DNA of 64,000 bases, taken from assembly GCA_963555755.3 (NCBI GenBank), contig OY820905.2, positions 352,001 to 416,000 of the forward strand, given 5' to 3'. The stretch's first letter is position 1. Every line of letters begins with the position of its first letter. This document shows, in pieces, positions 11,346 through 40,217 of this stretch. This DNA comes from Nitrospirales bacterium (lineage in GTDB: Bacteria > Nitrospirota > Nitrospiria > Nitrospirales > UBA8639). The notes under the pieces were generated by a model. It was not told the origin of the DNA, did no database searches, and saw only the letters and a list, made by a program, of their open reading frames with translations. Both the position numbers and the translations under genes were made by a program.

Positions 11346-11733
11346 ATATTCTGTATGATCCATCTTTTCTTTGTATGGTGATATAAACCCTTAGTTAATT
11401 GTATAAATTGACTTAATTGAAGTGATATATTATTGTAAGAGTATATTACTCTATTTGTAATTGAATTGGGGCATATACGCTCATGTTAAATGTACCGTTA
11501 ACCTAGGGAGTACCTGCAAAGCCGTTTCAGCGTTCGAGGGCCTCTTCCGTACTTCTCGTCAAGTAACGCGTAGGGCCGAAACTGGCCACCTTCCCCTTCC
11601 CCTTTCTCTACAACGCGGGTTTCTGACACATCTCCGAAAGGCATACAGCCTGATGGAGATCATCGTCAGCGTGTGGTCACAGGATGACATGAACCTAAGG
11701 ATCGAGCGATCCCAGACACCTAAAGGAGAATCT

Positions 11734-14562: not shown

Positions 14563-14750
14563 CCGGCACCGCTTCCTCAGGGGAGAGGCCACGACTCGTG
14601 GCCTCTCCCCATGAATCAAGGGGACCGTTAGAAGAAGCCGTATCAACCAACCCCTCGCGAATAACGCTGGGGGAACACCAGCAAGCCAGCGCGTGGCCCC
14701 ATTAATGAACCTGAGGATCGAGCGATCCCAGACAATTATTAGGAGAATCT

Positions 14751-17700: not shown

Positions 17701-19119
17701 AGGTCACCTATGACGTTTCGGACCAGGCCGGCAACCCCGCCACGCAGGTGACCCGCACGGTCCATGTCGTGGATACCACGCCACCCGTGATTACGTTGGT
17801 GGGCACCAGCCCGGTGACGGTGGAAGTGGGCAGCCCGTATACGGATGCCGGGGCGACGGCCGCGGATACGGTGGATGGGGATCTCACGGGCAGCCTCGTG
17901 ACTGGCGGCCTTGGACACGAGTGCGACGGGGACCTTCCAGGTCACCTATGACGTTTCGGACCAGGCCGGCAACCCCGCCACGCAGGTGACCCGCATGGTG
18001 ACGGTGATGAATACCCCCCCCGTGGTCACCAGTCTCTCGTTAAATTCCGCCTCTATCAATGAGAATGACAGCGTGACGCTCGTTGGACATTTTGCCGACC
18101 CGACGAGCATTGATAGCCACACAGTAAGCATCACCTGGGGAGAGGGGTTACCCATTACAGTCGTGAATCTTCCTCCGGGCTTGCGAACATTCCAGGTCGT
18201 GCATCAATACCTCGATGATGTACCGACCCATACGCCGCTGGATAGTTCTCTCATTCAGGTAGCGGTGACCGATTCGCAAGGAGGTGTTGGAGGGAATTCC
18301 ACGAATATTGTCGTAAACAATGTAGCGCCGGTGATTCCAGTAGATGGAATTAGTGGACCGGTTGGGCCCATTGCGTTAGGGGTGGCAGCCCTTGTGACGG
18401 CAACCTTTAATGATGTGGGTAGTTTGGACACGCATACGTGTACATTTTCTTGGGGTGATGGCACGGCAGATGACGTCGTGGCGCTAGTTGGGACAGGCAA
18501 TACGTCATGTGCCGCGTCGCACCCCTATGCTGGTCCCGGCATCTATCAAGTCACCACCACCGTGGAGGATGATGACACGGGGACGGTCAGTCGCCCCTTT
18601 GACTTTGTGGTGGTTTACGATCCGGATGGCGGGTTTGTCACCGGTGGAGGATTCATTGATAGCCCAAGAGGCGCTTATCAGCCCGATCCAACGTTGACCG
18701 GCAAGGCGAATTTTAGTTTTGTGTCGAAGTATAAAAAAGGGGCTAAGATTCCGACCGGCAATACGCAATTTCACTTTAAAGCGGCAAGCGTTAATTTCCA
18801 CAGCTCCAACTATGAATGGTTAGTCGTGGCGGGCGCGAAAGCGCAATTTAAGGGCTCTGGAAAGGTCAATGGGCACTTCGGGTCGGATGGGGTGAGTGGA
18901 TACGGGTTCCTGTTAACCGCCACGGATGGGCAACGAGCGGGCGGTGGCGGCGTTGATAAGTTCCGTATCAAAGTGGTGGACAAGGCCACCGATACCGTTG
19001 TGTACGACAATAATACGAGTGGGTCAGACGATATTGATGCCGCCAACCCCCAGGAAATTAGCGGGGGCAGTATTGTCATTCATACGAAGAAACATACGAA
19101 GAAACAAACGAAGAGATAA
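14751..19119 (+). pseudogene. Second RCC1-repeat surface protein (14 RCC1 repeats, HYR, four DUF5011-like repeats, PKD-like, C-terminal beta domain), frameshifted near 17910
   Basis: ORFs 14751-17951 and 17911-19119 join across a 5 bp deletion (CCTGCCGGTGGAC to CCTTGGAC) in the fourth repeat. Confidence 0.82.
17034..18005 (+). repeat. Four tandem ~243 bp intragenic repeats (DTTLPVITLLGASSVTVEVGSPY...)
   Basis: Near-identical DNA units with 243 bp period. Confidence 0.9.
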
Positions 19120-19972: not shown

Positions 19973-20515
19973 ATGCATCATTGGAGAATTGAGCTTCGTT
20001 CGAGGAGTATCTGGGGGCTGAGATGTGTGGCCCTGCTGTTGGCGGGGCTAGCAATGGCCACAGCGGCCGACCCGGCCCTCGCGGCCTCCCCTAAGGAATA
20101 TAACGTAGCCAAGATGAGGTACGAGAACAAAGGAGGCTACACCGCCAAGGTGTACGCCGTCTTCAAGCACACAAAGGGCAGCAAGACGATGCGGTGCAAA
20201 GTGGAGCGCGGCCCCCGCGACTCGGCCGTAGTCGCAGCAGACGAAGCTGTTACATACAGAATGAACACAAACGGCCCATGGCAGGCAGACTCGGGCAATC
20301 CATCCGCCTGCCCTGACAGTCCGAACGCTGGGGCTGAAGTATGGCTGCAGATTCACATTGTGAATGGCGATGTGGAGAGCTGCCGAAAAAACGGGGCCAG
20401 ATACTTCTACTCCGCGAACGGCGGCACCGTCAGGTACGTGACCAAGGGCACCACGCTGAACAACAATCGCTGTCGGAACGACAGCCCCGCGGAGAGCTAC
20501 AGAATAGACAACTAG
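19973..20515 (+). CDS. Small secreted Cys-containing protein, family A
   Basis: AAGGA RBS; signal peptide; ENKGGY, EVWLQI..GDVESCRK, KGTTLNNNRCR. Confidence 0.8.
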   Translation: MHHWRIELRSRSIWGLRCVALLLAGLAMATAADPALAASPKEYNVAKMRYENKGGYTAKVYAVFKHTKGSKTMRCKVERGPRDSAVVAADEAVTYRMNTNGPWQADSGNPSACPDSPNAGAEVWLQIHIVNGDVESCRKNGARYFYSANGGTVRYVTKGTTLNNNRCRNDSPAESYRIDN

Positions 20516-20676
20516 GCCCTGTGAAAGCGAAAGTGTAGTTTGGTGCCATTTGGTTTCAGTCTTCGAGACCGACAGGTGCCGCGAGCGCCGGTTCACCCTA
20601 GGCCGCCTCCGGGAGAGGAATACGCTCGTCCATGTCGAGTTCGAAGAGCCCATAGGGGTTGACGTGGCTGTAGATC

Positions 20677-20696
20677 GGGAATAGGAATTTTAAACG
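20677..20696 (-). mobile_element. IS91/ISCR oriIS-like terminus
   Basis: Minus strand CGTTTAAAATTCCTATTCCC, identical to 37977-37996, which lies downstream of an IS91 transposase relic. Confidence 0.72.
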
Positions 20697-20924
20697 CTAT
20701 TTTAGGGGAATCGGAAACGTTTCGAAGAGACCGTGGGCTGTCAATCAGACCGTGGGCTGTCAATCAGGCCAGTCGCGGACTCAACATGATGGGAGAGAGG
20801 CTTCGAGCATGGCGTTCCTGGCCCTTGGACACATTTGGCGCACAGGCGATTCCCAAGAATGGCGACACAGAGGGGCATCTGAGGTGGTGAAGACCAAGGG
20901 GGATTGTGGGCTCAGCGTGTGAAC

Positions 20925-21795
20925 CGGAGCGAACGAAGTAAAAACAGTTGGTGTAACCGAACGCCGCAACGGTCATCAGCACCGCCAACGGCAACATCAA
21001 CTCAAGCGGCTTGGTGAACTCGAGATTGGCGGCAACGATGAACAGCGGCTTGAAGGCGTCCACGCCGAAAGCCAAGCTGAACACTGAATAGGAGACCGTC
21101 GTGGCGATGAACGCCGGGATCAGTGCTTCGGCCTCAAAATCCGGATCCCGGTACATCACCTCGATGGCGAAGATCGCGCCGGCGAGGGGGGCATGAAAGA
21201 TCGCCCCGATGCCCGCGCCCAGGCCGGCGGCCATGAGCATGCGCCGTTCGCTGTCGGACAATTTCAATCTTGTCGCCAAAAAGGATCCGAAACCCGCGCC
21301 GATCTGCGCGATCGGTCCTTCCCGGCCGCCCGACCCGCCCGTCCCCAGCGTAATGGCGGACGAGATCATTTTGATCAGGGGCACGCGGGCCCGGATGATG
21401 CCCCGATCGTGGTGATAAGCCTTGATCGCTGCATCCGTACCGTGGCCTTCAGCTTCGGGCGCAAATCTGAATACCAGCCAGCCGCTGACCAGCCCGCCGG
21501 CGGCTGGGATCAGAATCAACAGCCACGGCGTAATATCGGTCTTGGCCTCGTCGTCGTGCATCTCAATCGGCGATATCTGATGCAGTTCCGTTTCATTGGC
21601 TGGTCCCTTTTGTTCATAGCCGACCGCCTGCGCCAGCGCGAAAAGGGTGACCACCAGGCAAAGCAGGTGAAACAGGATCGCCCCCAGGCCCGCCACCACA
21701 CCAACCACCGCCGCCAGTCCCATCAACCGACCCAGCGCCCGGCCACCTGATTCCGGCAAGATGCCGACGCGATGTAAAAGGTGCTTGATATCCAT
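20925..21795 (-). pseudogene. ClC chloride channel/antiporter, 3'-truncated
   Basis: EAEGHGTD, GGSGGREGP, FHAPLAGAIFAIE; similarity ends near 20925. Confidence 0.85.
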
Positions 21796-21943
21796 GGCAG
21801 AAGGCAAAGCGTAGCACGATCAGCTGTCGATTACACGAATGAGGCGCTGGAAAAAGGAGTCGCCGCACCGTTTTCAATGAAATGACCACTCGATGGTCGA
21901 CCGCTATACTGTCGCGCTTTCGATGGACCTGGAACCTGACCCC

Positions 21944-22753
21944 ATGTCGCCTCGACGCCCAACCCGCCAGATCACGCTCGGAGACGATACTCACGGCTAT
22001 GTGAGGATCGGTGGCGATGCTCCCGTCTCAGTGCAGACCATGACCGCGGGTTACACTTACGACATCGATGCCTGCGTGGCGGAAATCCACAAACTCGCCG
22101 CCGCCGGCGCTGATATTGTGCGTGTCGCCGTACCGGAGAAGAAGGACACCGAAGCGCTGGCGCAAATCCTGCCCCAGGTAAACGTGCCGATCGTGGCGGA
22201 TGTGCATTTTCATTTTCAACGCGCGATTGAGGCCATCAAAGCCGGTGTGCATAAGATTCGACTCAACCCGGGCAACATCAGCGACCGCGAACAGGTCGTG
22301 AAGGTGATCGATGCGTGCAAGGAACGATCGATTCCTATTCGCATCGGCGTCAATGAGGGCTCGATCATTGAACGCAAAGACAAACAGAAGCGCATGGAGG
22401 AACTGGGCAAGTTCTTCAGCGACAGCAAGCACGGGCATCTGCTGGCCATCATGATCGCCAAGCTCGAAGAATACCTTGATATCTTTGAGCAACGGGATTT
22501 CCACGACGTCTGCATTAGCGCCAAGAGCATCGATCCGCAAATCGTCATCGACGCCTACACGGAAATCAGCAAGCGATTCGACTACCCCCTGCACCTGGGC
22601 GTCACGCACGCCGGGCCGCGGGAGGTGGGACTGATTCGCAGCGTCGTCCCGCTTGGACATCTGCTGGCGTCGGGTGTCGGCGACACCGTTCGCATCAGCT
22701 ACGCGAACGATTCTTCTCTCGAAGTTGAGGACGCCATCGAAATGCTCTGCTAA
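21944..22753 (+). pseudogene. ispG: HMBPP synthase IspG, truncated before the Fe-S domain
   Basis: VSVQTMT, VADVHF, RLNPGNI, IRIGVNEGS, PLHLGVT, GDTVRIS; no C-terminal CPxCGR. Confidence 0.9.
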
Positions 22754-22981
22754 CTTGACAAGCCCATTGGTAATACCAACCACGTCAGCAACGCACTCAA
22801 CGTTAGAACCATTCGTTTCAGCACCCTCCCTAGTCTGGTCAAGCCGGGATTCTCCCCCATGGTTACCCCGGGTCGCCGACGCCAGTGGCTGAGTCTGGGG
22901 GGGTCATCAGCCCGATTTGCCGGACGCCGGGTAACGTGACAGTCCCTCAACGATTCATTCGTAGCCCTCGATTCGGGACCT

Positions 22982-23608
22982 TTACAGCTTGGTACCGTCG
23001 ATGCCCTTGATGGCACATTTCACAGCGTTGACAGTGCCGCCTGCCTTGTATTTGAAGATATCTTTCTTGCCCATTTTATACCAAGTACTTTTACCCTTGT
23101 GCCGCCACTTCCAATAGGGATTCGTACCATCCACATATTTTACGCTGGCGACGGAACACTTATCTTGCATACCTGAACCGGCACCGACTGACTTGATCTT
23201 AAGACGAACTTCAAATCCGTTTTTCTGCAGCGTCCCCAACGTGGTGCCAAGCTTGCCCTCCAGGAAAGACGTGGAAAACCAGAAATTCACGAATGCCGCA
23301 CCGAGCGGTTCACCATTAATATGGGAACCGAACTTATCGAGTTCGATCCAACTCGATTGACCGGAAAGCCGTGCGCGCAGCCAGACGGTATCCACGGTAT
23401 ACCCAGAGGTATTCCAAAGTGTGAAATTAAACGGAGCATTATAAGCTTTAGCTTTCAGCTCTACGTCCAGGCAGTCGCCGTTGGCTGTGTCTGCATTACT
23501 ACATCTTCCTTTGCTTGCATCAAAATTGCTGGTGCCTGCCCAGCCGTTATAGCCTACGACTAGAAGAATTATGAGTCCAAGCAATAGTTTCCCGGTGATC
23601 CTCTTCAT
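22982..23608 (-). CDS. Secreted Cys-containing protein, divergent family A member
   Basis: AGGAGG RBS, signal peptide, WNTSGYTVDTVWL, EVRLKIK, GGTVNAVKC. Confidence 0.75.
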   Translation of the reverse strand: MKRITGKLLLGLIILLVVGYNGWAGTSNFDASKGRCSNADTANGDCLDVELKAKAYNAPFNFTLWNTSGYTVDTVWLRARLSGQSSWIELDKFGSHINGEPLGAAFVNFWFSTSFLEGKLGTTLGTLQKNGFEVRLKIKSVGAGSGMQDKCSVASVKYVDGTNPYWKWRHKGKSTWYKMGKKDIFKYKAGGTVNAVKCAIKGIDGTKL

Positions 23609-23620
23609 GATTTACCTCCT

Positions 23621-25539
23621 GTGCGCCGGTCAAAACCGGCAAGGTGTTAAAGTGAAAGTCTTCAACGTTGAAGGATTAGCGACCCACAACGTCCCCGAGT
23701 CATGCGCGAGTCCGCTGGGTAACCACGGCCGCGAAGCGTTGACAGGGGGGCGGGCAGGCTGGGTATTGAGCCGCGAAAGTATCTTGCTTCGGGGTGCCGA
23801 CCTTGTAGGAGAATGGGGAAGGCGACACCGGTTGTGCCGATTGCGCGAGGCACAGCGGGACCCTGCGCGGTCAGAGACCCCATGCATGTTCGTACGCACC
23901 TTGTTTGGGAACCGGGAGATCCCACCACCGCCCGCGCGACATGGCGCTGCGGGCCGCATCGGGAAGTCCAAGGACGTATGCCGATGATGCACGGTCGTGG
24001 GAAGTCGGACACCCGTGTAGTACCCAAGAAGTCCCCGAACAACGTTGGCCGACCAGCGGCGGAGGGGATGGAGGGAAGACGGGTGGCCAAAGGGAACTCG
24101 CGTGAGCAAACCATGCGCCGGACGCAAGGCCGGGCACGCATGCAAAGCGCGCTCGCGCGGGTACGTCAAGCGGCAACACGGGATACGTCGTTGCGGTTCA
24201 CTGCGCTCCTGCACCACATTTACAACATCGATACCCTCCGGGAGGCCTACTTCGGCCTCAAGCGGCATGCCGCGCCGGGGGTTGATGGGGTGACGTGGCG
24301 GCACTATGGGGAACACCTGGAGGCGAACCTCCAAGATCTTTCCGCGAGGCTGCAACGCGGAGCGTACCGAGCGAAGCCGACGCGGAGAACGTTCATCACC
24401 AAGTCTGACGGTCGGGACCGACCGCTGGGCGTGACCGTGCTGGAGGACAAAGTGGTCCAACGGGCGACGGTCGAAGTGTTGAATGCTATCTACGAAGTTG
24501 ATTTCCTCGGGTTTTCGTACGGGTTCCGCCCGGGGTGTAGCCAGCATCATGCGCTGGACGCGCTCTATGCGGGCTTGCTGACGCGGAAGGTGAACTGGGT
24601 GCTGGATGTCGACATTGCCGGGTTTTTCGACGCCATCAACCGGCAGTGGCTGATGAAGTTCCTCGAGCACCGGATTGGGGACCGGCGCGTGGTGCGGCTC
24701 ATCCAGAAATGGCTGAACGCGGGCGTGCTGGCAGAGGGGAAGCGAATCGTGAGTGAGAAGGGCACGGTGCAAGGCAGCAGCATCAGTCCGCTGTTGGCGA
24801 ACGTGTACCTGCACGATGTGTTCGACCTGTGGGTTCAGGATCGGCGGACGCAGTGGGCGTATGGCGAGGTCATCGTCGTACGGTTCGCGGATGATGCCGT
24901 GCTGGGCTTTCAGCATCGTGGCGTCGCTCAGCAGTTCCTCGAAGATCTTCGCAAACGTTTGGCGGCGTTCGGACTGGAGTTGCATCGCGACAAAACGCGG
25001 CTTCTGGAGTTCGGGCCGTACGCGGCCCAGAACAGAAAGGACGCCGGGCGGGGCAAACCGGAGACATTCACCTTCCTTGGCTTCACGCATATCTGCGCGA
25101 AGAAGCGAAGGAATGGCATGTTTACGGTGTTGCGCCAGACCATGCCAAGAGGTTGCAAGCCAAACTGAAGGAGGTGAAGATCCTCCTTCGGCAACGCTTG
25201 CACGACCCTGTCCCGGAAGTGGGCCAGTGGTTGGCGTCGGTGGTTCGGGGGCATTGCCAGTACTATGGCGTGCCGATGAACGGCCCGGCGTTGGCGCTGT
25301 TCCGTTTTCGCGTGACCTGGCTCTGGTGGCGGTCGCTTCGGCGACGCAGCCAGAAAACCAATGTGACGTGGGAGCGAATGAAGCGCCTGATCGATCACTG
25401 GATTCCTCCGGCCCGTATCTGTCATCCGTATCCCCTGAGAAGACTTGGCGTTATCACCTGAGGCAAGAGCCCAGTGCGTTAGCAGCGCTCGCTGGGATCC
25501 GTGGAGGGGGTGTTCAGTAATGGGCATTCCTACTCCGAC
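23621..25539 (+). mobile_element. Group II intron, bacterial class E-like
   Basis: 5' GTGCG at 23621; domain V GAGCCCAGTGCG...GCTGGGATCCGTGGAGGGG; domain VI ending CCTACTCCGAC. Confidence 0.9.
23978..25461 (+). pseudogene. ltrA: Intron-encoded reverse transcriptase/maturase, frameshifted near 25145, no endonuclease domain
   Basis: APGVDG, SYGFRPG, QGSSISPLLANVYLH, RFADD, FTFLGF; domain X continues in ORF 25153-25461 (RICHPYP). Confidence 0.88.
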
Positions 25540-25655
25540 TTTTGATACCCAGGCCCAGGGCATAAACATCCCGTCGTCTTGATAAATAGGCCATCACTAA
25601 ATGATCCGCAACGGCTGTTGTGGCGCTAAGTTCTTCACGGAGATGCGGTACACGA

Positions 25656-26129
25656 TCACCAATCCCAGGAGTATTCACAGTTTCCTGTGCCGGGACCTAC
25701 ATAAGACTCGGTGAGCGGTTTTTTGACCTTACGACAACGGTTCCCATTCAATGTCGTGCCCTTGGAATAGTAATACTGGTCATTCTGATTGTTCGCATAA
25801 ATCATCTTCTGGCTTTTCCGACAACTCTCCTTGTCCCCCCCCGCAATCTTAAACTTCAACCAGACCTCGGACCCCTCTTCGAGAACATCAATTTTTCTCA
25901 GGTCTGCGCAGGACTCTTGCCCTGCCATCAGATCGCCAGCCCATTTCCTGCGATTCTCCACCCCGTCTTTTTCCCAAAACACTTGCATATCATCCACGGT
26001 ATACCCCCGGAATTATAGTACAGTAGGACAACGACGTTTTTGGGAATTGTCATCAGTAAATGATGCACTGACATTAAGAAAGATGACCGGAAACCCCCAC
26101 GCAACCGTGATGTCCCATTTGTATGCCAT
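25656..26129 (-). pseudogene. Family A secreted protein with two compensating frameshifts and a stop between them
   Basis: MAYKWDIT... signal region; +1 near 26042 and -1 near 26002 relative to paralogs; intact C-terminal ORF 25656-25997. Confidence 0.8.
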
Positions 26130-26256
26130 GTTGACTTTCTCCAACTAATGGTACCGGGTAATATCGTGCAACGGTCAGGAGTCTGTGTGCACGACAGGGG
26201 ATACATACCACCCGTTCGTAGATCGCGGGGAGTTTATCGCCTATCACACTCGCTAA

Positions 26257-26742
26257 TCAATCAGGCCAATAATCGGAGGCTTTACAATTTCCAGTGCCAG
26301 GGCTCACCAGAGACTGAGTAGGGGGCTTCGATTTCCTGCAACGATTCCCATTCAAGGTCGTCCCCTTTGAATAGTAAAACTCTAGAGTATCCCCAAATTT
26401 ACTTTTCACAAAAATCATTTTCTCGCTTTTTCGACAACTCTCCTTGTCGCCACCCGAAATCTTAAACTTCAACCAGACCTCCGACCCCTCATCGAGACCA
26501 TCCACTTTGTTCAGGTCAGCGCAGAACGCCTTCCCTATGGTCAGATCTCCAGCCCATTTCCTGCGTTTCTCAACCCCGTCCTTTTTCCAAAACACTTGCA
26601 CATAGTCCACGGTATATCCCCCTGAATTGTAGTAAAACAGGATGTCGACGTTTTTGGACTTGTCTTCAGAAAATGATGCATTGGCATGGAGAAAGATTCC
26701 CAGAAATGCCAACGCCACCGTGATGACCCATTTGTGTGCCAT
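26257..26742 (-). CDS. Small secreted protein, family A
   Basis: GGAGG RBS, signal peptide, YYNSGGYTVDYV, EGSEVWLKFKISGGDKESCRKS, KGTTLNGNRCR. Confidence 0.87.
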   Translation of the reverse strand: MAHKWVITVALAFLGIFLHANASFSEDKSKNVDILFYYNSGGYTVDYVQVFWKKDGVEKRRKWAGDLTIGKAFCADLNKVDGLDEGSEVWLKFKISGGDKESCRKSEKMIFVKSKFGDTLEFYYSKGTTLNGNRCRKSKPPTQSLVSPGTGNCKASDYWPD

Positions 26743-26880
26743 GATGCTCACCTCCTCAATGAATGATGTGACCGGTTTCTATCATCGTGCAACGGTCATT
26801 GGTTTGTGATGTGCCCCCAGGGAATAAAGCACCCTTTGAAAGACGCGATATCGTAAATGGGTATCGCCTTCGCTATTCAA

Positions 26881-27369
26881 TCAACCCGCAGTAGAATCAT
26901 ATGAACAATTTCCCGTGCCGGCATCAAGCGCAACATTGTTGGGCGGCCTCCCTTTCCGGCAACGATTCCCATTCAACGTCGTGCCCTTTGAATAGTAATG
27001 CTGGGGTACTAGTGTGTTCAGTGAGGCGCTCTTCGTAAAAATCATTTTCTCGCTTTTTCGACAACTCTCTTTGTCGCCACCCGAAATCTTAAACTTCAAC
27101 CAGACCTCTGATCCCTCTTCGAGACCCTCAATTTTGGTCAGGTCAGCGCAGAACCCTACACCAACCGTCAAGTCTCCACCCCATTTCTTGCTTTTCTGCA
27201 CCCCGTCTTTTTTCCAAAACAATTGCACATAGTCCACGGTATACCCCCCTCGATTAAGGTAATACAGGACCTCGACGTTTTTGGATTTGTCCTCAGAAAA
27301 TGATGCACTGGCATGCAGCCAGATGCCCAGAAACACCAACGCAACCGTGATGACCTTTTTGTGTCTCAT
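26881..27369 (-). CDS. Small secreted protein, family A
   Basis: Tandem paralog with the same motifs and RBS. Confidence 0.87.
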   Translation of the reverse strand: MRHKKVITVALVFLGIWLHASASFSEDKSKNVEVLYYLNRGGYTVDYVQLFWKKDGVQKSKKWGGDLTVGVGFCADLTKIEGLEEGSEVWLKFKISGGDKESCRKSEKMIFTKSASLNTLVPQHYYSKGTTLNGNRCRKGRPPNNVALDAGTGNCSYDSTAG

Positions 27370-27498
27370 GTGGCTCACCTCCTCAATAATTGTCCCGATC
27401 AATATTTTGCTAGTGTCAGTTGCCTGTGTTTTGTCACACGGGAGAGAGAACACAACACCCTTCGAAGCACGCGAGACCCTTAACGAGTCTCGCATTCG

Positions 27499-27981
27499 TT
27501 ACCAATAGTTGCCCCAAGGACAATTTCCATTTTTATTATCCCTATATGAAATTCCAGTGGAGGAGGGTTTCGCTTTCCTGCAACGATTCCCATTCAATGT
27601 TGTGCCCTTTGAATAGTAATGCTGAGTTTTTACCTCTTCACTATCCTGAAAAATCATTTTCTGGCTTTTCCGACAACTCTCCTTGTCGCCACCTGCAATC
27701 TTAAACTTCAACCAGACCTCTGACCCCTCTTCGACCCCATCAACTTTGCTCAGTTTTGCGCAGAATCCTTGAGCTGACATCACATCTTTAGACCATTTCT
27801 TGTCTTTCTGCACCCCATCCTTTTCCCAAAACAATTGCACATAGTCTACGGTATACCCACCTGAATTATAGTACAGCAGGACGTTGACGTTTTTGGACTT
27901 GTCTTCAGCAAATGCGGCATTGGCACTGAGCACCATGACCAGAAACACCAACCCAACAGTGATCACCCATTTGTATGTCAT
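27499..27981 (-). CDS. Small secreted protein, family A
   Basis: Tandem paralog with the same motifs and RBS. Confidence 0.87.
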   Translation of the reverse strand: MTYKWVITVGLVFLVMVLSANAAFAEDKSKNVNVLLYYNSGGYTVDYVQLFWEKDGVQKDKKWSKDVMSAQGFCAKLSKVDGVEEGSEVWLKFKIAGGDKESCRKSQKMIFQDSEEVKTQHYYSKGTTLNGNRCRKAKPSSTGISYRDNKNGNCPWGNYW

Positions 27982-28360
27982 GTTGACCTCCTTCAAAATG
28001 AATGTCCTGAGAATGATCGTGCAGCGGGCATTGCCCTGTGGTGCACCAACACCACACCCTTCGAAGCACGCGAGACCGGCAACGGGAATTGCAATCGTTA
28101 TCCAGGTTGCCTTCATAGTTTGCATCGGTTATTGGTCAAAGGAATGAAACGTCATGGTGCTATCCACCTCGCTTTTAGAAATCAGCCTATGGCGGCAACT
28201 ATGGCGTGTGAGAAGGCCAACACGAGGGCCACTACAGCCAAAAAATTGGTTCCTCTGATGGTTGTGGGACACATGAAGTGTTGCCTCCTTGGTCATATGT
28301 TCTGACAGTATCAAGGGATGATCTTGTCGACAGGGTTCATCATCCCAGGTCGATCGTGAT

Positions 28361-28798
28361 CTAAGGCAGTTGGCTGACCCTACAGCGATTGTTTGTTGCC
28401 AATTCTCCACTCGTCTTATAGGTCACCTTCGCGTTGGAAGCGGGAAGGTAATAGAACTTCTTGTCGTCCTTGCGGCAATTCTTACGTTCGCCAAGCTGAA
28501 TGCCGATGATTGCCCACACCTCATCGCCCGACTTGATTTTGGCTTCGGTCCTCCCATCAGAAACCTTCCCAAGCTGAAAGCTTCTGGTCTTGCCGGCGTT
28601 GACGCAATCGTTGTCCTGCATCGTTTTAAACTTCTGGCCGTTCGGCTTCTTCCAATGAATCGACACGCATGCCCGGTATGTACCGTTGTTATAGTAAGTG
28701 ATTTTATCGATATTGTAGTCTGTCGCGTGTGCAGGCGACGCTGCAACCGCGCACATGCCAAGCGCAACAATTGAGAATAATTTTTTAAAGAAGCTCAT
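28361..28798 (-). CDS. Small secreted protein, family A (divergent)
   Basis: Signal peptide ending AHA; YYNNGTY, DEVW, NCRK, NNRCR. Confidence 0.82.
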   Translation of the reverse strand: MSFFKKLFSIVALGMCAVAASPAHATDYNIDKITYYNNGTYRACVSIHWKKPNGQKFKTMQDNDCVNAGKTRSFQLGKVSDGRTEAKIKSGDEVWAIIGIQLGERKNCRKDDKKFYYLPASNAKVTYKTSGELATNNRCRVSQLP

Positions 28799-28936
28799 AC
28801 GGTTCCCCTCCCAGAAGGTATGGGACCTCGACGTTCAGTCAGGTCCCGCTTTTGCTCAGTTTGCCACATTGGTGTCCATGAGAATCAATCGGTTTAGAAG
28901 GAGCTCAGGCGATTCTTTTTGCTGCTATCATTCGGG

Positions 28937-29368
28937 CTATGATCCTGCCTTCAAGGTTTTGAAGTCACTTTCTGAATAGCCGCACTTTAGTGTGAGCGCG
29001 GGACTCTGTTTTCCACTGTTAAGTACCGAGCAGCGCTTTTTCGGTCCTTTATTCTTAGTCCCTCTGGTCTCCTGACCTTCCGCGCTACCCTCACACCAAA
29101 ACACCGACACTTGCCTATTCGACGTGCCGGGCTTAAAAAAGTATTTGGCTTCTTCTCCGGGTCCAAGCCGAGCCTTTTTGCATACCAGAGCATTTGCATC
29201 TGCTGCACAACTAAGGCTTGCCGATTTTACCCCGGCACACCCTGCTGCTGTAAAAAAAACCTCTATTTTCCTATCCGACCCGTTATAGACCTTGCTGCCG
29301 GCTTCAACCGACAGGGGTAACAAGACTCCGGTCAAACTCAGCATCAACATTCCAATCTTCACTCTCAT
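28937..29368 (-). CDS. Small secreted six-Cys protein, family B
   Basis: GGAGG RBS, signal peptide ending VEA, GCAGVK, VCKKARL, KRCS, KCGYS. Confidence 0.85.
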   Translation of the reverse strand: MRVKIGMLMLSLTGVLLPLSVEAGSKVYNGSDRKIEVFFTAAGCAGVKSASLSCAADANALVCKKARLGPGEEAKYFFKPGTSNRQVSVFWCEGSAEGQETRGTKNKGPKKRCSVLNSGKQSPALTLKCGYSESDFKTLKAGS

Positions 29369-29438
29369 GGTGTATCCTCCTGTGTTCTACCCCAAATATT
29401 CGGGTATCAGGCGATTCTTGTCGCCAATGTCATTCGGG

Positions 29439-29870
29439 CTATGATCCTGCCTTCAAGGTTTTGAAGTCACTTTCTGAATAGCCGCACTTTAGTGTGAGCG
29501 CGGGACTCTGTTTTCCACTGTTAAGTACCGAGCAGCGCTTTTTCGGTCCTTTGTTCTTCGTGATCTTGGACGTAAACTCTTCCCCCGTGCCCTCACACCA
29601 GGCCACGTATACTCTCCTATCCGACGTGCCGGCCTTGAAAAAATATTTGGTGTCTTCACCGGGGCCAAGCCGAGCCTTTTTGCATACCGTAGGACTCAAA
29701 CTTTTAGAACAACTCAAGCTTCCCTGCTTAACCCCAGCGCACCCTACAGCTGTAAAAATTACTTCTATTTTCCTATCCGACCCGTTATAGACCTTGCTCC
29801 CGGCTTCAACCGACAGGGGTAACAAGACTCCGGTCAAACTCAGCATCAACATTCCAATCTTCACTCTCAT
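29439..29870 (-). CDS. Small secreted six-Cys protein, family B
   Basis: Tandem duplicate of 28937-29368 (502 bp period). Confidence 0.85.
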   Translation of the reverse strand: MRVKIGMLMLSLTGVLLPLSVEAGSKVYNGSDRKIEVIFTAVGCAGVKQGSLSCSKSLSPTVCKKARLGPGEDTKYFFKAGTSDRRVYVAWCEGTGEEFTSKITKNKGPKKRCSVLNSGKQSPALTLKCGYSESDFKTLKAGS

Positions 29871-30088
29871 GGCTTATGCTCCTTTGTCTGTCCCGTAGTT
29901 GCATCTTTCAGTGCCTGAGGGTAGGTGGTTTTGTCGTCATGGAAAGCAAACCATTCAGTGACTTATTTCGGTGACTTCTTATAGAAGGCCGTTTCTGTAT
30001 GAGAGGCCCTAGGAAATGAAAGCCATCATCTGCCAAGTCAGTCACGAGAGAGGAAAGGATCACTTTTTCGAACCATTCATCTCTCCGC

Positions 30089-30508
30089 TCAGTTGCCCTT
30101 GAGCGCGTCGTATTCTGCCTGGCTGTAGTTACACTTGACGTTTTTATCAGAATTAGCCGAGCAACGCTTTTTGTCGCCCTTATTACCGGTGTTGGCGTAA
30201 TTCCAATTCGAAGCTGTGCCACCTCGGTAGCATTGGATGACCAATACCGATCTGCCCGTCGTGCCGTCCTTAAAGTGATACTGACTGGATTCACCCGACG
30301 CCAACACCTTCTTCTTGCAGACGGTCTTCACATCTTTTTGAACGTCGTCGCACGAAGGGGTCGGTTTGACGCCTGCGCACCCCGCAGCCTGCCAGTACAC
30401 CGTGACCTCCTGACTGGTCGAGTTATAGACATGGGATTTTGCCCACAGGTTCAAGGGCGCCACGCTCACCAAGACGGCGAGCGTCCATGTGATGATAAAG
30501 ATTTTCAT
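30089..30508 (-). CDS. Small secreted six-Cys protein, family B (divergent)
   Basis: AAGGAG RBS, signal peptide, AAGCAGVK, VCKKKVL, KRCS, KCNYS. Confidence 0.85.
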   Translation of the reverse strand: MKIFIITWTLAVLVSVAPLNLWAKSHVYNSTSQEVTVYWQAAGCAGVKPTPSCDDVQKDVKTVCKKKVLASGESSQYHFKDGTTGRSVLVIQCYRGGTASNWNYANTGNKGDKKRCSANSDKNVKCNYSQAEYDALKGN

Positions 30509-30653
30509 CGCTCACACTCCTTTCATGAATAGGCTCTTCAAACAAAGTGTCCCGGGACCGGAAACGCGACTGAGCAGGTGCCCTACCAATACACGAGGCA
30601 TGATGTATCACCCTGCAATACATGCCAATGCCTGGAGTGCTAAGAGCGGATGC

Positions 30654-31163
30654 CTATGATCGTTTATTGATAGAGAGATAAAATTTGGCATCGTCTGCAC
30701 TCTCACCACAGTTACTATAGCTAGCACTCATCGGCAGGGAGTTGTAATCCAAATCCGTGATATTGATGGATTTATCTCCTTTGCGTTCGAAATCAACCCG
30801 CCATTTATATTTGGATTTTTTGGTGCATTTTTTCTGGCGAATATATACTTTCAACTCACCAACTCGTGCCGTGCTGCCGTCTTCAAGATTTTCGACAACC
30901 CGTAAGTAGGCTTTCGCTGCCTGTCTCTTGCCATTCTCCGTCGTAACAGTGATGTTACATGATCCTTTTCCGGAAACGATCCTGTTGCAACGTGAAAAAT
31001 CAACCGTCGTGAGTTTTCCATCCGTGCTTGCGAGAGAAATGGCGTAGCTTTTTTCATTCTTAAAGTCTACGCGTACAGATACTGTCGCGACAGAAGGGCC
31101 TGCGGCCATAGCTAGCCCGTAGGGTGCAATCAAACAAAGTACGACATACACCAAGATTTTCAT
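30654..31163 (-). CDS. Secreted hypothetical protein
   Basis: AAGGAG RBS, signal peptide ending AMA, four Cys in mature part. Confidence 0.7.
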   Translation of the reverse strand: MKILVYVVLCLIAPYGLAMAAGPSVATVSVRVDFKNEKSYAISLASTDGKLTTVDFSRCNRIVSGKGSCNITVTTENGKRQAAKAYLRVVENLEDGSTARVGELKVYIRQKKCTKKSKYKWRVDFERKGDKSINITDLDYNSLPMSASYSNCGESADDAKFYLSINKRS

Positions 31164-31418
31164 TTTTTCTCCTTTCAATTCCATGGAGGGACGGTTTTCA
31201 CACAAGGGCTTAGCGGGATGGCTGCCCAAGATGGGGGCCAAGCGCATGTGTTCTCCTCCCAATGAGAAACCGTCATGCATGGTGAGAGCCGATTCCTACT
31301 AGCCATGAGAGAACCTGGTTCACCCATAACTCCGACCATGCTCCATTTCCACCGAGTGATTCTCTGTCATCCTATTTGCGTGATACCCTTTTCATCGGCA
31401 ACACCCTTTTGAGTGTTG

Positions 31419-31730
31419 TTAGAATTGACCACCACAGTTAGAACAAAACTTTGCGCCAGCCTGCATTTCTACACCACAGTTACTGCAAAATTTACCTTGC
31501 GGGAACGCCTCACCACACTGCTGGCAAAATTTACTGCTTCCGTCATTGATAGTGTGACATTTCTGACAGCTGATGGTTGAGACGCTTTGCGATGTAAGAT
31601 CCGGCTTACTTTGAGAATAGCTATGACCCTGTTGAGCACCTGCGAAATCACCCAGAAGCCTGCCCAGCCAACCACCTTTTCCACGACTTCCTCCACCATG
31701 ATGCCCCATCAATACACCTCTATTCTTCAT
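31419..31730 (-). CDS. Double zinc-ribbon protein
   Basis: CQKC, FCQQCG, FCSNCG twice. Confidence 0.75.
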   Translation of the reverse strand: MKNRGVLMGHHGGGSRGKGGWLGRLLGDFAGAQQGHSYSQSKPDLTSQSVSTISCQKCHTINDGSSKFCQQCGEAFPQGKFCSNCGVEMQAGAKFCSNCGGQF

Positions 31731-32047
31731 TGCTCTTTTTTGAAATGGTCACAATCTTTCCTTGGGAGAAAGGTTGTTCATCGTCACAGCTCCTGCCATG
31801 AATAAAATTTTTTCAGTTGGATCGGAAGAGTTGGCCAGGCCATGACTTTTTTGCCTTGAATAGGGCCTCGGACCATGCGGTAAAAGGGCGCAAGAGAGGA
31901 GATGATCATTACCCATATTCGACGCATCCTGAGAGTTGGAGAATAATTCCTATCGGGGCTGTTGAATATTTCCGTTTCAGACATCGAACGGTTCGCCAGG
32001 AAAACCTGATTGCAACGCCTGAAGAGAATGTTCCATAAAAGCATGTC

Positions 32048-32230
32048 CTAAGACTGCCGAAGGAAAGGCCGCAAACCTTTTAACGCACCGAGCGTACCCT
32101 CAGTACGTGAGCAACAACGCCGCAAAAAGCGGGAAGTCTGTGAGTCCAATGGTCGGCAAAATGGTGAGAACGCTGTTGGCGGCCCATTTGACCAAGCTCA
32201 GAACTGGGATTTTTTAACCTTCCCCTTAGT
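32048..32230. repeat. Possible degenerate MITE/REP-like element
   Basis: CGTACCCTCAGTACG palindrome and GAGAACGCTGTTGGCGG core; single copy in this window. Confidence 0.35.
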
Positions 32231-32344
32231 CATTTCCGGTTCAGTGTAGCTGGGGCCAGGTACGTCGAAAATTCCAGGCAGTGCGTAGCGTCTCCCCCTC
32301 AGCAGCGACCCCAAACCTTTCACCAGAGTCGTGCGGCACCAGAC

Positions 32345-32929
32345 TCAGGTCCCGCTTTTCCCCAGCTTCCCACATTTGTGTCCATGAGAATCAACCGGAC
32401 TAGAGGGGGCTCCAGCGGGTTTCTTGCCATCAGCCCACGAGACTGACACGTGCCACTCATTACTCGTGGTGGTCCCGTCGGTCTTGGCCTTGATCACACA
32501 GGCCGGCGTCAGAAACAGGCTCCGGTCTTTCTTGGGACCGGCCACGATATTGATTTTCAGGTTATAGGCGCAACTGGCCGGCACGGTATAGACATCGTAT
32601 TGGCCAAGACTGGTATCGGAGTCAAACTTGATGTCAATGCCTGAACACGGGGCCCCCGTGTCCGGATGGTCTTGCGAGGGGGTCCCCGCATCGGGTTGGT
32701 CGGATTTGGATTTTAAGACGACCGTAGTGACCACATACCCCCCTTTATTCGCATAGACGATGCCGCCACAGGGCTTGGTGCCATCCTTACAGTATGGGTG
32801 GGTATAGGAACTTTTTTCCGTTGCCGCTCCAGCCAAGACCGGTAAGCACATGACCGCTGCCAAGGCAATCAGCACCACCCAGCCCTTCGTCAACCCTTCG
32901 TGTCCGACAGTGTTTCCGGTAAATTTCAT
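32345..32929 (-). CDS. Secreted Cys-containing protein, distant family A member
   Basis: AAGGAGG RBS, signal peptide, YANKGGYVV, LKINIVAG, DGTTTSN. Confidence 0.72.
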   Translation of the reverse strand: MKFTGNTVGHEGLTKGWVVLIALAAVMCLPVLAGAATEKSSYTHPYCKDGTKPCGGIVYANKGGYVVTTVVLKSKSDQPDAGTPSQDHPDTGAPCSGIDIKFDSDTSLGQYDVYTVPASCAYNLKINIVAGPKKDRSLFLTPACVIKAKTDGTTTSNEWHVSVSWADGKKPAGAPSSPVDSHGHKCGKLGKSGT

Positions 32930-33067
32930 TTTGCCCCTCCTTGAGTTTCTGGCAGTTGGTAATATCGGCCGCGCGGCCAACCAGCTCGCGATCGTTTGGT
33001 TGACCCGGGAGTTCTCCTGAGGTCACCCCGTTAACAATCCCCCTTTCACTTCCTTAATTCCCATTTT

Positions 33068-33167
33068 CTTAATTCCCCTTGGTCTCGTCATCAGAAAATG
33101 ATGCGCATGCCTTGAGATAGATTAACCGAAACACCCCAGCAACAATTATCATTGGTTTGTTGACCAT
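33068..33167 (-). pseudogene. Signal-peptide-only relic of a family A gene
   Basis: GGAGG RBS then MVNKPMII...ASFSDDETKGN*, matching paralog N-termini ASFSEDKSKN. Confidence 0.55.
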
Positions 33168-33245
33168 GGTGGCCTCCCATGGGCATCTTGCAACGATGGA
33201 TGGTCCGCGTGAGTCGCCTATCGGGCTGATACCAAACGGGCCTTT

Positions 33246-33769
33246 TCAGCCCCCATCATCATTGAACATGTCCTTAGACGAATTGTAACTACGCCTACAG
33301 GGGAGATTCGTTCTATTCCTGAATGCCTGAATACACGCGCGACCTTCTGCACGTCGACACCTATGTTGGTAAGCGTCTCTCCCCTGGTGTTGAACACAAT
33401 ACCGCCTTCCCCGCCTCCGGGTTTGTAGAAATATTGGTGTCATCCTTTCGAGAATTCTTGGTTTCTCCTGCATCTATCGCCACTTTCAGCCACACCTCCG
33501 CCCCCTCAGGAATCGTCACATCTTTGTCAAGGTTAAAACAGGCATAATCATGTTGCTTGAGCCGACGATTAAATTGTTTCTTGTGCTTTTTCCCATCTAT
33601 TTTCCAGTACACCCAATCCCTGGAAACCACGTCACTGCCACATTGGGCGTAATAAATTTTGCTAATATTTCCTTCTTCAACACCATAATACCGGGGCCAC
33701 ATTCATGATTCCGGCGACCAGGACCAGGAAGGCCAAAAAATGGGTTCTTCTAACTTTGGTGATACGCAT
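33246..33769 (-). pseudogene. Family A secreted protein with multiple frameshifts
   Basis: Signal peptide in ORF 33677-33862, PEGAEVWLKVAIDAGE in 33361-33702, HRCRR in 33246-33473. Confidence 0.72.
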
Positions 33770-33909
33770 GACGGGTGTTTCCTTGCTGAAAGGGAATAGA
33801 TGATATAGACGCCCCCCCTTTCTAACAGGAACGAGGGCTACCATCAATGATGGATACCTCAACGTGGTAAGCTATGCTTTTGCAACCACATACACCCAAG
33901 GAGGCGTCT

Positions 33910-35028
33910 ATGAAACAGAGTATAGTCTACGTGGGCCTTGATGTCGATGATACCCAGTACCATGGTTCGGCCTTTGCCACACACACTGGTGTCGTCGTGG
34001 ATTTCCAATGTCGGCCAACGCTGAAGGGCCTGCTCCGCCAGCTTGAGAAACTCGGCCAGCATTTTTCTGGATGCGCGGTCAGGTTGTGTTATGAAGCGTC
34101 CTATCTTGGTTATACCCTGCAACGGGATTTAGCCGAACAGGGGTATCATTGTGATGTGGTGGCCCCGACGAGTATCCCCCCCCCTCGCAGCAAACAGATC
34201 AAAACCGATCGCATTGATGCTGCGCAACTGGCCCAATTCTACGCCCATGGCCTGCTCACGTTGATCAGTATCCCCGAGCCGGCACAGGAACAAGACCGGG
34301 ATCTGCTGCGCACGCGCCAGCAGCTGGTCGAGCCGCAAACGGCCCTGCGCAAGCATGTGCAAGCCTTATTGCGCCGCAATGGGGTGCATGACAAGGCGCA
34401 GACCCACAGTCGAACCTATTGGACCACCCATCACTTTTGCTGGCTCGAGCGGACCATCACCGCCACGTCCGGGAGTCTCAAAGTGAACCTGGAGCTCTTG
34501 CTGCGGCACCTGAACGGTTTGACCACCATCCTGGCGGGCTATGACCAACAGATCGAGGAGCTGGCCAGCAGTGCCCGCTATGCGAAACCGGTGCACTCCT
34601 TGACCTGTTACAAAGGAATCAAGAATACCTTTGCCCTCACGATGATTACGGAAATCGGCGATATCACACGTTTTGCCCACCCCCGGCAATTAGTCTCTTG
34701 GATCGGCATGGATATCCGGGAATATTCTTCAGGGGGCACCCACCATCGGTATGGCATCACGAAACATGGCAATCGCTATGTCCGCACGGCCTTCATCGAG
34801 GCGAATCAACGCGGCTACCGCACCGCCATCATCAGCCCGAAGCTGAAGGCCCGACGGGCCCATACGGCCCCCGACTATGTGGCGATTGCGGATCGCTGTT
34901 TACGGCGACTGCATAAGAAAGGCAACCGGCTGCTGTTTGCCGGCAAGCATCCGAACAAAGTCAAGGTGGCCTGCGCTCGGGAAATGGTGGGCTTTGTGGG
35001 GGAATCACTTCGCAACGTGGCCGCCTAG
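33910..35028 (+). CDS. IS110-family DEDD transposase/recombinase
   Basis: GGAGG RBS, YVGLDVDD, CYEAS, KTDRIDA, YSSGG, GITKHGN. Confidence 0.92.
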   Translation: MKQSIVYVGLDVDDTQYHGSAFATHTGVVVDFQCRPTLKGLLRQLEKLGQHFSGCAVRLCYEASYLGYTLQRDLAEQGYHCDVVAPTSIPPPRSKQIKTDRIDAAQLAQFYAHGLLTLISIPEPAQEQDRDLLRTRQQLVEPQTALRKHVQALLRRNGVHDKAQTHSRTYWTTHHFCWLERTITATSGSLKVNLELLLRHLNGLTTILAGYDQQIEELASSARYAKPVHSLTCYKGIKNTFALTMITEIGDITRFAHPRQLVSWIGMDIREYSSGGTHHRYGITKHGNRYVRTAFIEANQRGYRTAIISPKLKARRAHTAPDYVAIADRCLRRLHKKGNRLLFAGKHPNKVKVACAREMVGFVGESLRNVAA

Positions 35029-35754: not shown

Positions 35755-37916
35755 CTATTGAGTGGGCGCAAAGCCTCGACGCATAGTGTTCTCACTCGTC
35801 ACACGTTGGACCATGAATTGTTGCAAGTACCCTTCCCCTCCCGCCTTGGTGCCCACCCCTGAAAGTCGATGTCCGCCAAAGGGCTGCCGTCCAACTAATG
35901 ATCCGGTGATGGGGCGGTTGATGTAGAAATTTCCGACATCAAAAGTTTCACGGGCCCGTTGGATGTTCGCCGGGCTTCGGGAGTACACCCCGCCTGTCAG
36001 GGCAAAATCCGATTGCATGGCCATAGCCAGCGCATCTTCAAATGATGGGCATCGAAGGACCGCCACGACCGGCCCAAAAATTTCTTCTTGAGCCATCCGG
36101 TGATGGGACTGGATTTCTCCCACGATCACGGGTCCTTGAAACCATCCTTCACTCTCAATGACCCGGTCCAGCAACACCTTGCCTTCCTGGCGGGCAATGT
36201 CCACATATTCCCGTACTTTGTGTAGTGCCCGTTGATCGATCATCGGCCCCATTTGATTGCTGGGATCTTCGGGGGGGCCGATATGCAGGCTGTTAGCGGC
36301 TTGGGTGAGTCTTTCAATGAACTCGTTGTAAACCGGTTCAAGAACAATGGCTCGTGAGCATGCGGAACACTTTTGCCCCTGATATCCGGTGAAAGAGTAC
36401 AGTACCCCGTGCACGGCTTCGTCCAAATCCGCGGTTTCATCAATAATGATGGCATTCTTTCCACCCATTTCCGCAATGGCATGTGTGACATGATGTTGTC
36501 CGGGTTGCATCTTCGATGCCTGGTTGATGATTTGAAGTCCGGCCTCTTTTGATCCGGTAAATGCAATGACATGAATCTGAAGATGCGAAACGAGGGCTTT
36601 GCCAATCTCCGGCCCGCCGGGAAGGAAATGAAGTACGCCATCAGGCAAACCCGCTTCTCGAAAAAGCTGCGATAGATGATAGCCCATCATCGGTGAACGC
36701 TCGGATGGTTTGAACAGCACGGCGTTACCCGTGACGAGGGCGGAAGATACCAGTCCGGTTGGAATGGCCAAAGAGAAGTTCCAAGGAGAAATCACAACCG
36801 CCAATCCGCGAGGCCGCCATTCGAGATGATTCAGCTCCCCAGGTTCTTGCCCAAGCCGTTGGGGTCGGCCTAATCGGCGCATCTCCCGCGCATAAAATTC
36901 CAGAAAATCGATGGCTTCGGCAATGTCGCCATCTGCCTCTCGCCATGGTTTGCCCGTTTCAAAAATTTCCCAAGCCGCGAGTTCATGCCGACGTTGCCGC
37001 ATAAGTTCGGCGACCCGACATAAATAATCCGCGCGAGTATCCGCCGACGTTGTCCGCCATTGTTTCCATGCAATCTGAGCCGATTGAATGACTCCCTCGA
37101 TTTCCGCAGGAGCGTAGCTTGGCATCCTGACAATAATTTCGTTCGGGCGGCTCGGGTTGGTGGAAACCAGTTCATCCTTGAGTTGTCCTACGGTGGGCGG
37201 AACATAAAAATTCACTGTCTTTCCCAGTTGTCCCTTGACGCTCTCAATTGCTTCCGACATGGCCTGGCGAGCTGCTTCCCGTGAAAAATCGGTGTGCGGT
37301 TCATTTTTAAAAGATGGACCCATGTCTTGTTCATGAATCATGGCGTGTTGTCCAGAGACCTGAGAGGCGTGTGGAGGGGCCAGTAATACGTCAAGTGGTG
37401 TCTCATGATCTCGCTGCTTCGAGATAAAGGATTCATTCGACGTGTTTTCCAGAAGTCGCCGTACGAGGTACGCCATTCCGGGGATCAATTCCCCAACTGG
37501 CGTATACACACGAACGCGCCTGCCATATTTCACCACGGCATGTTGTAATGCATCGGCCATGCCATACAGAGATTGGTATTCATAGTTGTCGGGAGCGAAG
37601 TCATGAGCTTGGGCAATGGCTTCGGCATGGGCCAAGCTTCGTAAATTATGCGTGCCAAACGCGGGACGGAACAGAGTGGGGTGGGCGAGTAGTTTGCCAC
37701 TGATGTATTCAAAGTTGGCATCGGTTTCTGCTTTGTGCCGCAACACCGGGATTGGCCAGCCACGCTGCTCGTTTTGAATATTCTCCGCATCCCAGTACGC
37801 CCCTTTTACTAAACGAATGGTAATAGGCGTGCCACGTTGTCGTACCCAATCAACCATGCGATCGAGTGTCATATCCGCATCGCGTAAATAGGTTTGGAGC
37901 GCAATCCCCGCACCGA
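35755..37916 (-). pseudogene. putA: 5'-truncated duplicate of putA (whole P5C dehydrogenase domain, partial PRODH)
   Basis: Near-identical to 40028-42189; ORF 35755-37872. Confidence 0.92.
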
Positions 37917-39997: not shown

Positions 39998-40217
39998 CAA
40001 GAGGCAACATTGCAGGGAGGAACACAGCTATTGAGTGGGCGCAAAGCCTCGACGCATGGTGTTCTCACTCGTCACACGTTGGACCATGAATTGTTGCAAG
40101 TACCCTTCCCCTCCCGCCTTGGTGCCCACCCCTGAAAGTCGATGTCCGCCAAAGGGCTGCCGTCCAACTAATGATCCGGTGATGGGGCGGTTGATGTAGA
40201 AATTTCCGACATCAAAA
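39998..40217. repeat. Right island direct repeat
   Basis: Includes 30 bp of geneX sequence beyond the putA stop (CAAGAGGCAACATTGCAGGG...). Confidence 0.88.

Follow-up and report, generated by a model that had tools for sequence, protein, structure and literature searches.

Small secreted proteins with a predicted cytolysin domain 4 fold in a gene island of a Nitrospirales bacterium

What can a bacterium do with the membrane-recognizing end of a pore-forming toxin if the pore-forming part is not there? This question is raised by a gene island (positions 19,973 to 33,769) within a 64,000-nucleotide stretch of DNA, referred to below as the window, from a Nitrospirales bacterium (GenBank assembly GCA_963555755.3, contig OY820905.2, positions 352,001 to 416,000), whose 4.62 Mb genome consists of two contigs, is rated 99.4% complete and has a 16S gene that is probably of the Nitrospiraceae. 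An earlier note on this sequence had described the island as an array of about ten secreted paralogs resembling domain 4 of the cholesterol-dependent cytolysins (CDCs). The proteins, here named family A, are proposed to be pore-less domain 4 modules that may bind sterol-containing membranes with one tip and without lysis, a tentative reading to which a probability of roughly 40% is given; the fold assignment and the existence of a pore-less, multi-copy family are fairly well supported.

Seven genes of the window, named here by their start positions, are clearly homologous (19973, 25656, 26257, 26881, 27499, 28361 and the gene at 33359–33769, two of them broken). A family profile run against 93,880 six-frame open reading frames (ORFs) of the genome recovered them with E-values of 1e-36 to 6e-19, and pairwise matches among them share 26–74% identity. 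The gene 32345 is, judged by its sequence, a divergent member: its genome-wide profile E-value is just 0.13, while hhalign aligns it to family A over 100 columns with a probability of 93%, a score attained by none of 500 shuffles. Membership of 22982 is only probable, as the local hhalign probability is 2.4%, a single homolog is known and the language-model Atlas gave no match; its 9.2 bits narrowly beat all 500 shuffles (shuffle maximum 8.8) and its end-to-end score of 12.1 compares with a maximum of 9.6 in 60 shuffles. Three further copies, one of them broken, lie elsewhere in the genome, which holds ten matches in total. The count of about ten paralogs was therefore overstated, there being seven clear, one divergent and one probable homolog of mixed origin, whereas the listed genes, broken copies and the relic at 33068 were found in place (with the broken gene put at 33246 lying at about 33359–33769), as were the signal-like N-termini and the motifs Y-x-N-x-G-G-Y, EVW, ESCRK and GTTL-N-x-NRC.

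The mature part of the 26257 protein was modelled from a 143-row alignment (mean predicted local distance difference, pLDDT, 91.6; predicted template modelling score, pTM, 0.86; all-beta) and is predicted to form an eight-strand sandwich, with G-T-T-L at the position of loop L1, between strands 95–100 and 110–113, and N-x-G-[AG]-Y at the position of loop L2. Of 48,161 chains compared by VIA-align, the three best were the C-terminal domains of 5cr8, 5aoe (pneumolysin) and 6nal, the last of which is titled 'Gram negative toxin' and is presumably a cytolysin (Z 7.5, 7.5 and 7.4; root mean square deviation, rmsd, 3.5–4.0; 93–97 residues aligned), followed by the uncharacterised protein 2mca (Z 6.7) and unrelated sandwiches (6.2). 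Among 996 chains picked with Foldseek, ranks 1–24 were all occupied by cytolysin domain 4 (Z 7.0–8.2, rmsd 3.2–4.2 Å, 92–97 residues aligned, identity 10–17%), these 24 chains being close relatives of one another and not independent; below them came 2mca (Z 6.7) and then transthyretins (at most 6.3). Residues 6–115 of the model cover residues 390–500 of perfringolysin, and the ends of these ranges, from which the register is derived, align N14/Y18 with H398/Y402 and bring T104-L105 to within a residue of T490-L491. The latter pair recognizes cholesterol, and H398 and Y402 are conserved residues of a nearby pocket (PMC5744101). This agreement in register, seen near either end of the domain, lifts the match above its modest Z, and common ancestry of family A with cytolysin domain 4 is considered highly probable. 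The resemblance to domain 4 noticed in the sequence thus held up for the one member modelled, with domain 4 first in both structure searches, a predicted beta-sandwich comparable to that of perfringolysin and GTTL in an inter-strand loop at the L1 position.

On sequence grounds, family A proteins are nevertheless not cytolysins, since the pore domains, the undecapeptide and the Pfam match were all found to be absent. PF01289 (cytolysin domains 1–3) had no match in the genome at E≤1, two CDC-like queries matched nothing in it, and MACPF and ETX/MTX2 were not found there (the search did not extend to gasdermin or further pore families). The window proteins, of 145–208 amino acids (aa), have no room for a pore domain. 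The description of the proteins as pore-less is therefore supported.

The family extends well beyond this genome. A profile of eight sequences retrieved 211 representatives at 50% identity, of which 142 of the 150 listed are no longer than 215 aa, and a hydrophobic N-terminal stretch is present in 141 of 142 aligned relatives (by a crude hydropathy test). The carriers include Alphaproteobacteria: 13 loci were found in genome bins of Henriciella, Hyphomonadaceae, Erythrobacter, Rhizobiaceae and unclassified Pseudomonadota, by a pattern that picks up only part of the family. A regular expression built on three motifs proved too strict for use, matching just 23 of 148 members. The 11 alphaproteobacterial carrier genomes hold 42 matches, with tandem arrays of up to four, which makes multi-copy carriage a trait of the family, and family A is present in 23 of 201 genomes that belong to the same taxonomic family as one of the carriers. 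On viral contigs there were five pattern matches, none of which was confirmed. Searches with Pfam of the window proteins and the 143 members returned nothing consistent, and searches of PDB sequences with two profiles and a repeat protein yielded spurious matches alone and no cytolysin. In five proteins (P0036, P0052, P0065, P0097 and P0130) the module occurs as 3–5 tandem Cys-less repeats, with long further sequence in four; P0097 has a weak caspase-domain match (E 0.00095), below the cut-off.

Which parts of the putative binding tip have been kept? Across the 143 members, G102 is present in 142, T104 in 122 and L105 in 73, while N14 is found in 136, Y18 in 139 and both cysteines in 140; the core has a net positive charge in 119. 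The loop equivalent to the undecapeptide, assigned by its position between strands, reads I-x-x-G-[DE]-x-x-S-C-R-K and is polar and Cys-bearing, with a tryptophan in only three members, which agrees with the absence of the Trp-rich undecapeptide noted earlier. The TL pair occurs in six of the nine window genes. In the three intact tandem copies the L1 region shows no amino-acid change (nonsynonymous rate, pN, 0; synonymous rate, pS, 0.26), and pN/pS is 0.16 near the undecapeptide-equivalent loop, 0.74 near L3 and 0.99 in the tail (uncorrected pairwise values from few sites). With L1 invariant in these copies, local diversification must lie elsewhere, so the claim of a diversified TL loop holds between deep lineages and fails within the tandem copies. 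Ten alphaproteobacterial orthologs (77–91% identical) have Leu at the Leu site in six cases and I, M, V or A in four; the residue preceding the glycine is W, Y, H or G, and in one of them the loop is shifted.

How might such a protein work? It would be exported by its signal peptide as a domain without the pore part, and a disulfide between C78 and C110 (model numbering) would then staple the loop that replaces the undecapeptide. The Trp-rich undecapeptide ECTGLAWEWWR couples binding to pore assembly (PMC3390400), and for this reason it could be dispensable once no pore is made. Peripheral membrane binding would proceed through the TL pair, the tyrosine of L2 and the basic surface, and variation in L3, in the tail and, between lineages, at the Leu position would tune the choice of membranes. 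The role would be non-lytic attachment to, or masking of, the membranes of eukaryotic hosts or neighbours. Isolated domain 4 suffices for cholesterol binding and is not cytotoxic (PMC5375790), and the tandem-repeat forms follow a habit of binding modules. A broader proposal, that marine bacteria of at least two phyla carry a repertoire of sterol-sensing binders whose lineages are tuned to different eukaryotic sterols, is rather doubtful, and a host-associated lifestyle of the bacterium is a guess. The genome also encodes a squalene-hopene cyclase (contig C1:3988947-3989900), which makes hopanoids a candidate self ligand.

Several observations weigh against non-lytic sterol binding by a domain 4 module. 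The TL pair is present in just 63 of the 143 members, and in 31 the Leu site is occupied by Q, K or T. Near the tip, it is polar residues that are most strongly conserved (N108 in 141, K80 in 132 and R109 in 120 members), which suits a sugar or protein ligand. With tryptophan so rare in the loop, the protein lacks its principal hydrophobic anchor, a monomer has no avidity, and the undecapeptide also contributes to membrane binding (PMC5744101), making strong binding less likely here. Pyroptolysins do recognize sterols with an abridged undecapeptide loop, gaining avidity by oligomerizing (10.64898/2026.10.05.756811). With regard to the fold, Z values of 7–8 are also reached by unrelated beta-sandwiches (values below 8 may, according to the tool, mean a common arrangement), the rmsd of 3.2–4.2 Å and identity of 10–17% are accompanied by a lead of less than 1 over the next fold in the 48,161-chain search, and the register is known from range ends, not from a residue-level alignment. 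Finally, the profile of the cytolysin C-terminal family, PF17440, has no match in the window proteins (E≤1) or in the genome (E≤10) and is absent from the 25 families shown for the 143 members.

The strongest alternative, although it is itself rather unlikely, retains the domain 4 ancestry and assumes that the tip was re-used for a polar ligand (a glycan or a protein), giving a lectin- or adhesin-like module. N14, Y18, K80, N108 and R109 are better kept than the leucine, whose site is often Q, K or T, the Trp anchor is absent, tandem-repeat forms exist, and CDC-like toxins have diverse binding domains for unknown receptors (PMC7527733, PMC11169675). On the other hand, T-L is still the commonest pair at positions 104–105, site 105 is hydrophobic (L, I, V, M, F, Y or W) in 96 of the 143 members, and the pair does not vary among the tandem copies.

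It is improbable that family A is a small disulfide-bonded sandwich with the topology of transthyretins and no relation to domain 4, in which the GTTL match arose by coincidence. The modest Z, the values reached by transthyretin-type folds (5.8–6.3, with no Pfam match to the transthyretin-like/HIU hydrolase family) and by 2mca (6.7), and the absence of a profile-level link to PF17440 or to PDB sequences would suit such convergence. Against it stand the two separate motifs in register, one at each end of the domain, and the identity in structural matches, which is 10–17% for domain 4 as compared with 4–10% for transthyretins. An independent link comes from the language-model Atlas, where clusters with PF17440 were retrieved, one of 110 aa (score 0.90, with the Pfam family on 17% of its members) and one of 99 aa (0.85, on 68%); these rank behind unnamed clusters at 0.90–0.93, and scores near 0.9 are to be taken as leads.

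The last alternative is a multi-part system, in which the domain would target a separate secreted partner to the membrane, be it family C or some toxic or enzymatic subunit that has escaped recognition. Family C is a second secreted family (about 170 aa, six Cys, no Pfam match; loci include L025-L029 and L040-L045). In 11 alphaproteobacterial loci a family C gene immediately follows one of family A, and outside the window this genome has family C next to a broken family A gene (contig C1:1020330-1021611; L001:17355-18612). Family C was found in 17 of the 201 genomes, all 17 being among the 23 with family A, and two-part CDC-like toxins do exist (PMC11169675). The 11 loci, however, are orthologous to one another and amount to approximately one event, the related genomes are not independent, and kinship may explain most of the co-occurrence. 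Family C also forms tandem arrays of its own, of up to 7–8 copies, without a nearby family A gene, has no gene in the window and is predicted to be a small beta-sandwich with one helix (pLDDT 89). PF01289 occurs in two of the 201 alphaproteobacterial genomes, one of the 23 with family A and one of the 178 without it. A CDC-like gene was present in one of the 11 carrier genomes, but the contig bearing it has no match to family A, and the C-terminal parts of the two alphaproteobacterial CDC-like proteins (L030:1063-2673; L051) have no match to family A. A complex prediction for a cognate pair of A and C proteins scored 0.00 and counts neither way. On balance, a multi-part system is the least probable of the alternatives.

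How did the island come about? It is not simply an array of paralogs, since tandem duplicates are only 25656, 26257, 26881 and 27499 (DNA identity 73–78%). In the first tree every other window member groups with foreign sequences, and a constraint placing five intact window members in one clade was rejected (approximately unbiased test, p 9e-67, on 40 of about 170 available rows, picked after the first tree had been seen). Interspersed with the family A genes are three genes of an unrelated family (B), a block with ClC and ispG genes, the gene 30654, another for a zinc-ribbon protein, and a group II intron. The picture that emerges is of an island that has taken up small secreted proteins from various sources and in which some genes were duplicated in place and some decayed. 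Among 115 genomes of the same taxonomic family clear matches to family A are confined to this one (one other genome has a match at E 8e-4), which suggests horizontal gain. An integron cassette array was considered and rejected, as a core-site scan of 14 intergenic stretches for attC sites found no RYYYAAC...GTTRRRY pair (an integrase was not searched for).

The individual genes of the island are as follows. The first, 19973..20515 (+ strand; profile E 2e-34), encodes a 180-aa member with a signal peptide and an L1 loop GTTL that forms a lineage of its own; all the other window genes described in this paragraph are on the minus strand. The probable, very divergent member 22982..23608 (208 aa) has insertions and no TL pair. 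The tandem copies comprise 25656..26129, whose frame is disrupted around 26000-26050 while its GTTL loop is intact, 26257..26751 (164 aa), which is the modelled protein, 26881..27369 (162 aa, 74% identity to 26257) and 27499..27981 (160 aa, 65% identity to 26257). The member 28361..28798 (145 aa, L1 loop GELA, profile E 1e-36) again constitutes a lineage of its own. Further along, the divergent 32345..32929 (194 aa) has an L1 loop GTTT, a signal-peptide relic of a 26257-type gene is located at 33068..33167 (75% over 57 nucleotides to the 25656 copy), and the broken member at about 33359..33769 (E 6e-19) carries a stop at 33679, further frame changes and a GETL loop, in its own lineage. The earlier gene list had passed over several features: the group II intron, a second relic, derived from the C-terminal end of a gene like 32345 (28842..28895; 85% over 68 nucleotides), the family B genes and a 169-aa secreted protein without link to family A (30654..31163). 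Family B consists of secreted Cys-rich proteins with a GCAG motif and six Cys, encoded in the window at 28937..29368 (143 aa), 29439..29870 (82% identity to 28937) and 30089..30508 (139 aa, 39% identity to 28937), with one more copy elsewhere in the genome (L004:7459-8022). One of the 201 alphaproteobacterial genomes contains nine further sequences that match family B weakly (L052-L060; E 1e-7 to 3e-5). Families B and C and the 30654 protein were tried as relatives of family A and rejected (hhalign 0.3%, 7.4% and 0.7%, respectively).

Both broken copies are covered by contigs of sequencing runs X3 and X5 with no differences and no gaps, so this assembly is not alone in having the breaks. The runs belong to two studies, and the source may be one of these. 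Contigs from RNA libraries (X8, X11) overlap several island genes, but non-family stretches are touched at similar low depth and these contigs do not demonstrate expression. A second copy of the 32345 gene (contig C1:2964028-2966473; L003) is interrupted by some 1.8 kb of inserted DNA encoding a transposase-like ORF.

Mobile elements are found in and around the island. A group II intron (23621..25540, + strand, end approximate; RVT_1, RF02005), with a reverse transcriptase frame that appears split near 25160, has inserted just ahead of the start codon of 22982, and an IS110-family transposase (33874..35028, + strand) marks the island border; transposase- and reverse-transcriptase-like ORFs are also dense in the four other genome regions looked at. 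The ClC channel gene, which is partial, and the ispG, a shortened second copy with 38% identity to another one in the genome, occupy 20764-22753, between family A genes, with a GC content of 59% as compared with 51% for the genome. The zinc-ribbon protein, a double one, is encoded at 31419-31730. Directly upstream of the island (11461-19119) are large surface proteins that combine RCC1 repeats with Ig-like, HYR and PKD domains, the second of which is apparently split over two frames near 17930, and on the other side there are two putA (proline-utilisation) genes (35755-37872 and 40028-42991), the first without its N-terminal part.

How does family A compare with known systems? With CDC domain 4 (perfringolysin O 1pfo, pneumolysin 5cr8, listeriolysin O 4cdb; PF17440) it shares the length and span of the predicted sandwich, a G-T-T-L at the predicted position of L1 and the N-x-G-[AG]-Y in register with H398-Y402. 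It differs in being stand-alone with its own signal peptide, in lacking domains 1–3 and any PF17440 score, in having I-x-x-G-[DE]-x-x-S-C-R-K in place of the undecapeptide, in its conserved Cys pair and in retaining the Leu in only half of its members. The Ig-like domain of pyroptolysins (10.64898/2026.10.05.756811) is a domain 4-type sandwich outside a cytolysin, likewise with an abridged undecapeptide loop, but it is fused to a gasdermin pore domain and has WP in place of TL, whereas family A lacks a pore domain and carries T-L or T-x in most cases, with WP not among the pairs at positions 104–105 in its 143 members. The methods of that preprint state that 'solitary Ig-like domains' were filtered out, and its supplements may list solitary domains. 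The two-component CDC-like toxins of Bacteroidota (PMC11169675, PMC7527733), in which a binding part acts with a separate partner, are the model for a multi-part system. They keep domains 1–3 and have binding domains unlike domain 4, while family A keeps domain 4 without domains 1–3; adjacent genes of this type with cytolysin domains 1–3 are not found in this genome. The engineered domain 4 cholesterol probes (PMC5375790) bind without cytotoxicity, as proposed for family A, although they are laboratory fragments of perfringolysin O, and family A is natural, multi-copy and devoid of the undecapeptide. No description of family A was found in the literature searched, subscription papers and bioRxiv supplements lying outside the scope of the search.

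Domain 4 is familiar as the aiming part of a toxin and as an engineered cholesterol probe. Family A, with at least 211 sequence clusters, appears to have kept the fold and the recognition loops and to have dropped the pore and the Trp anchor, and it thereby opens two questions to direct test, namely whether the Thr-Leu loop is enough by itself for sterol recognition and what the origin of domain 4 was. Small, basic and likely disulfide-bonded binders of this kind could serve as lipid probes. If the broader proposal of a sterol-sensing repertoire is true, domain 4 would be a free-standing module, and the family would supply natural disulfide-stabilised probes for non-cholesterol sterols. Its multi-copy carriage points to an unrecognised, non-lytic engagement of eukaryotic surfaces by marine bacteria.

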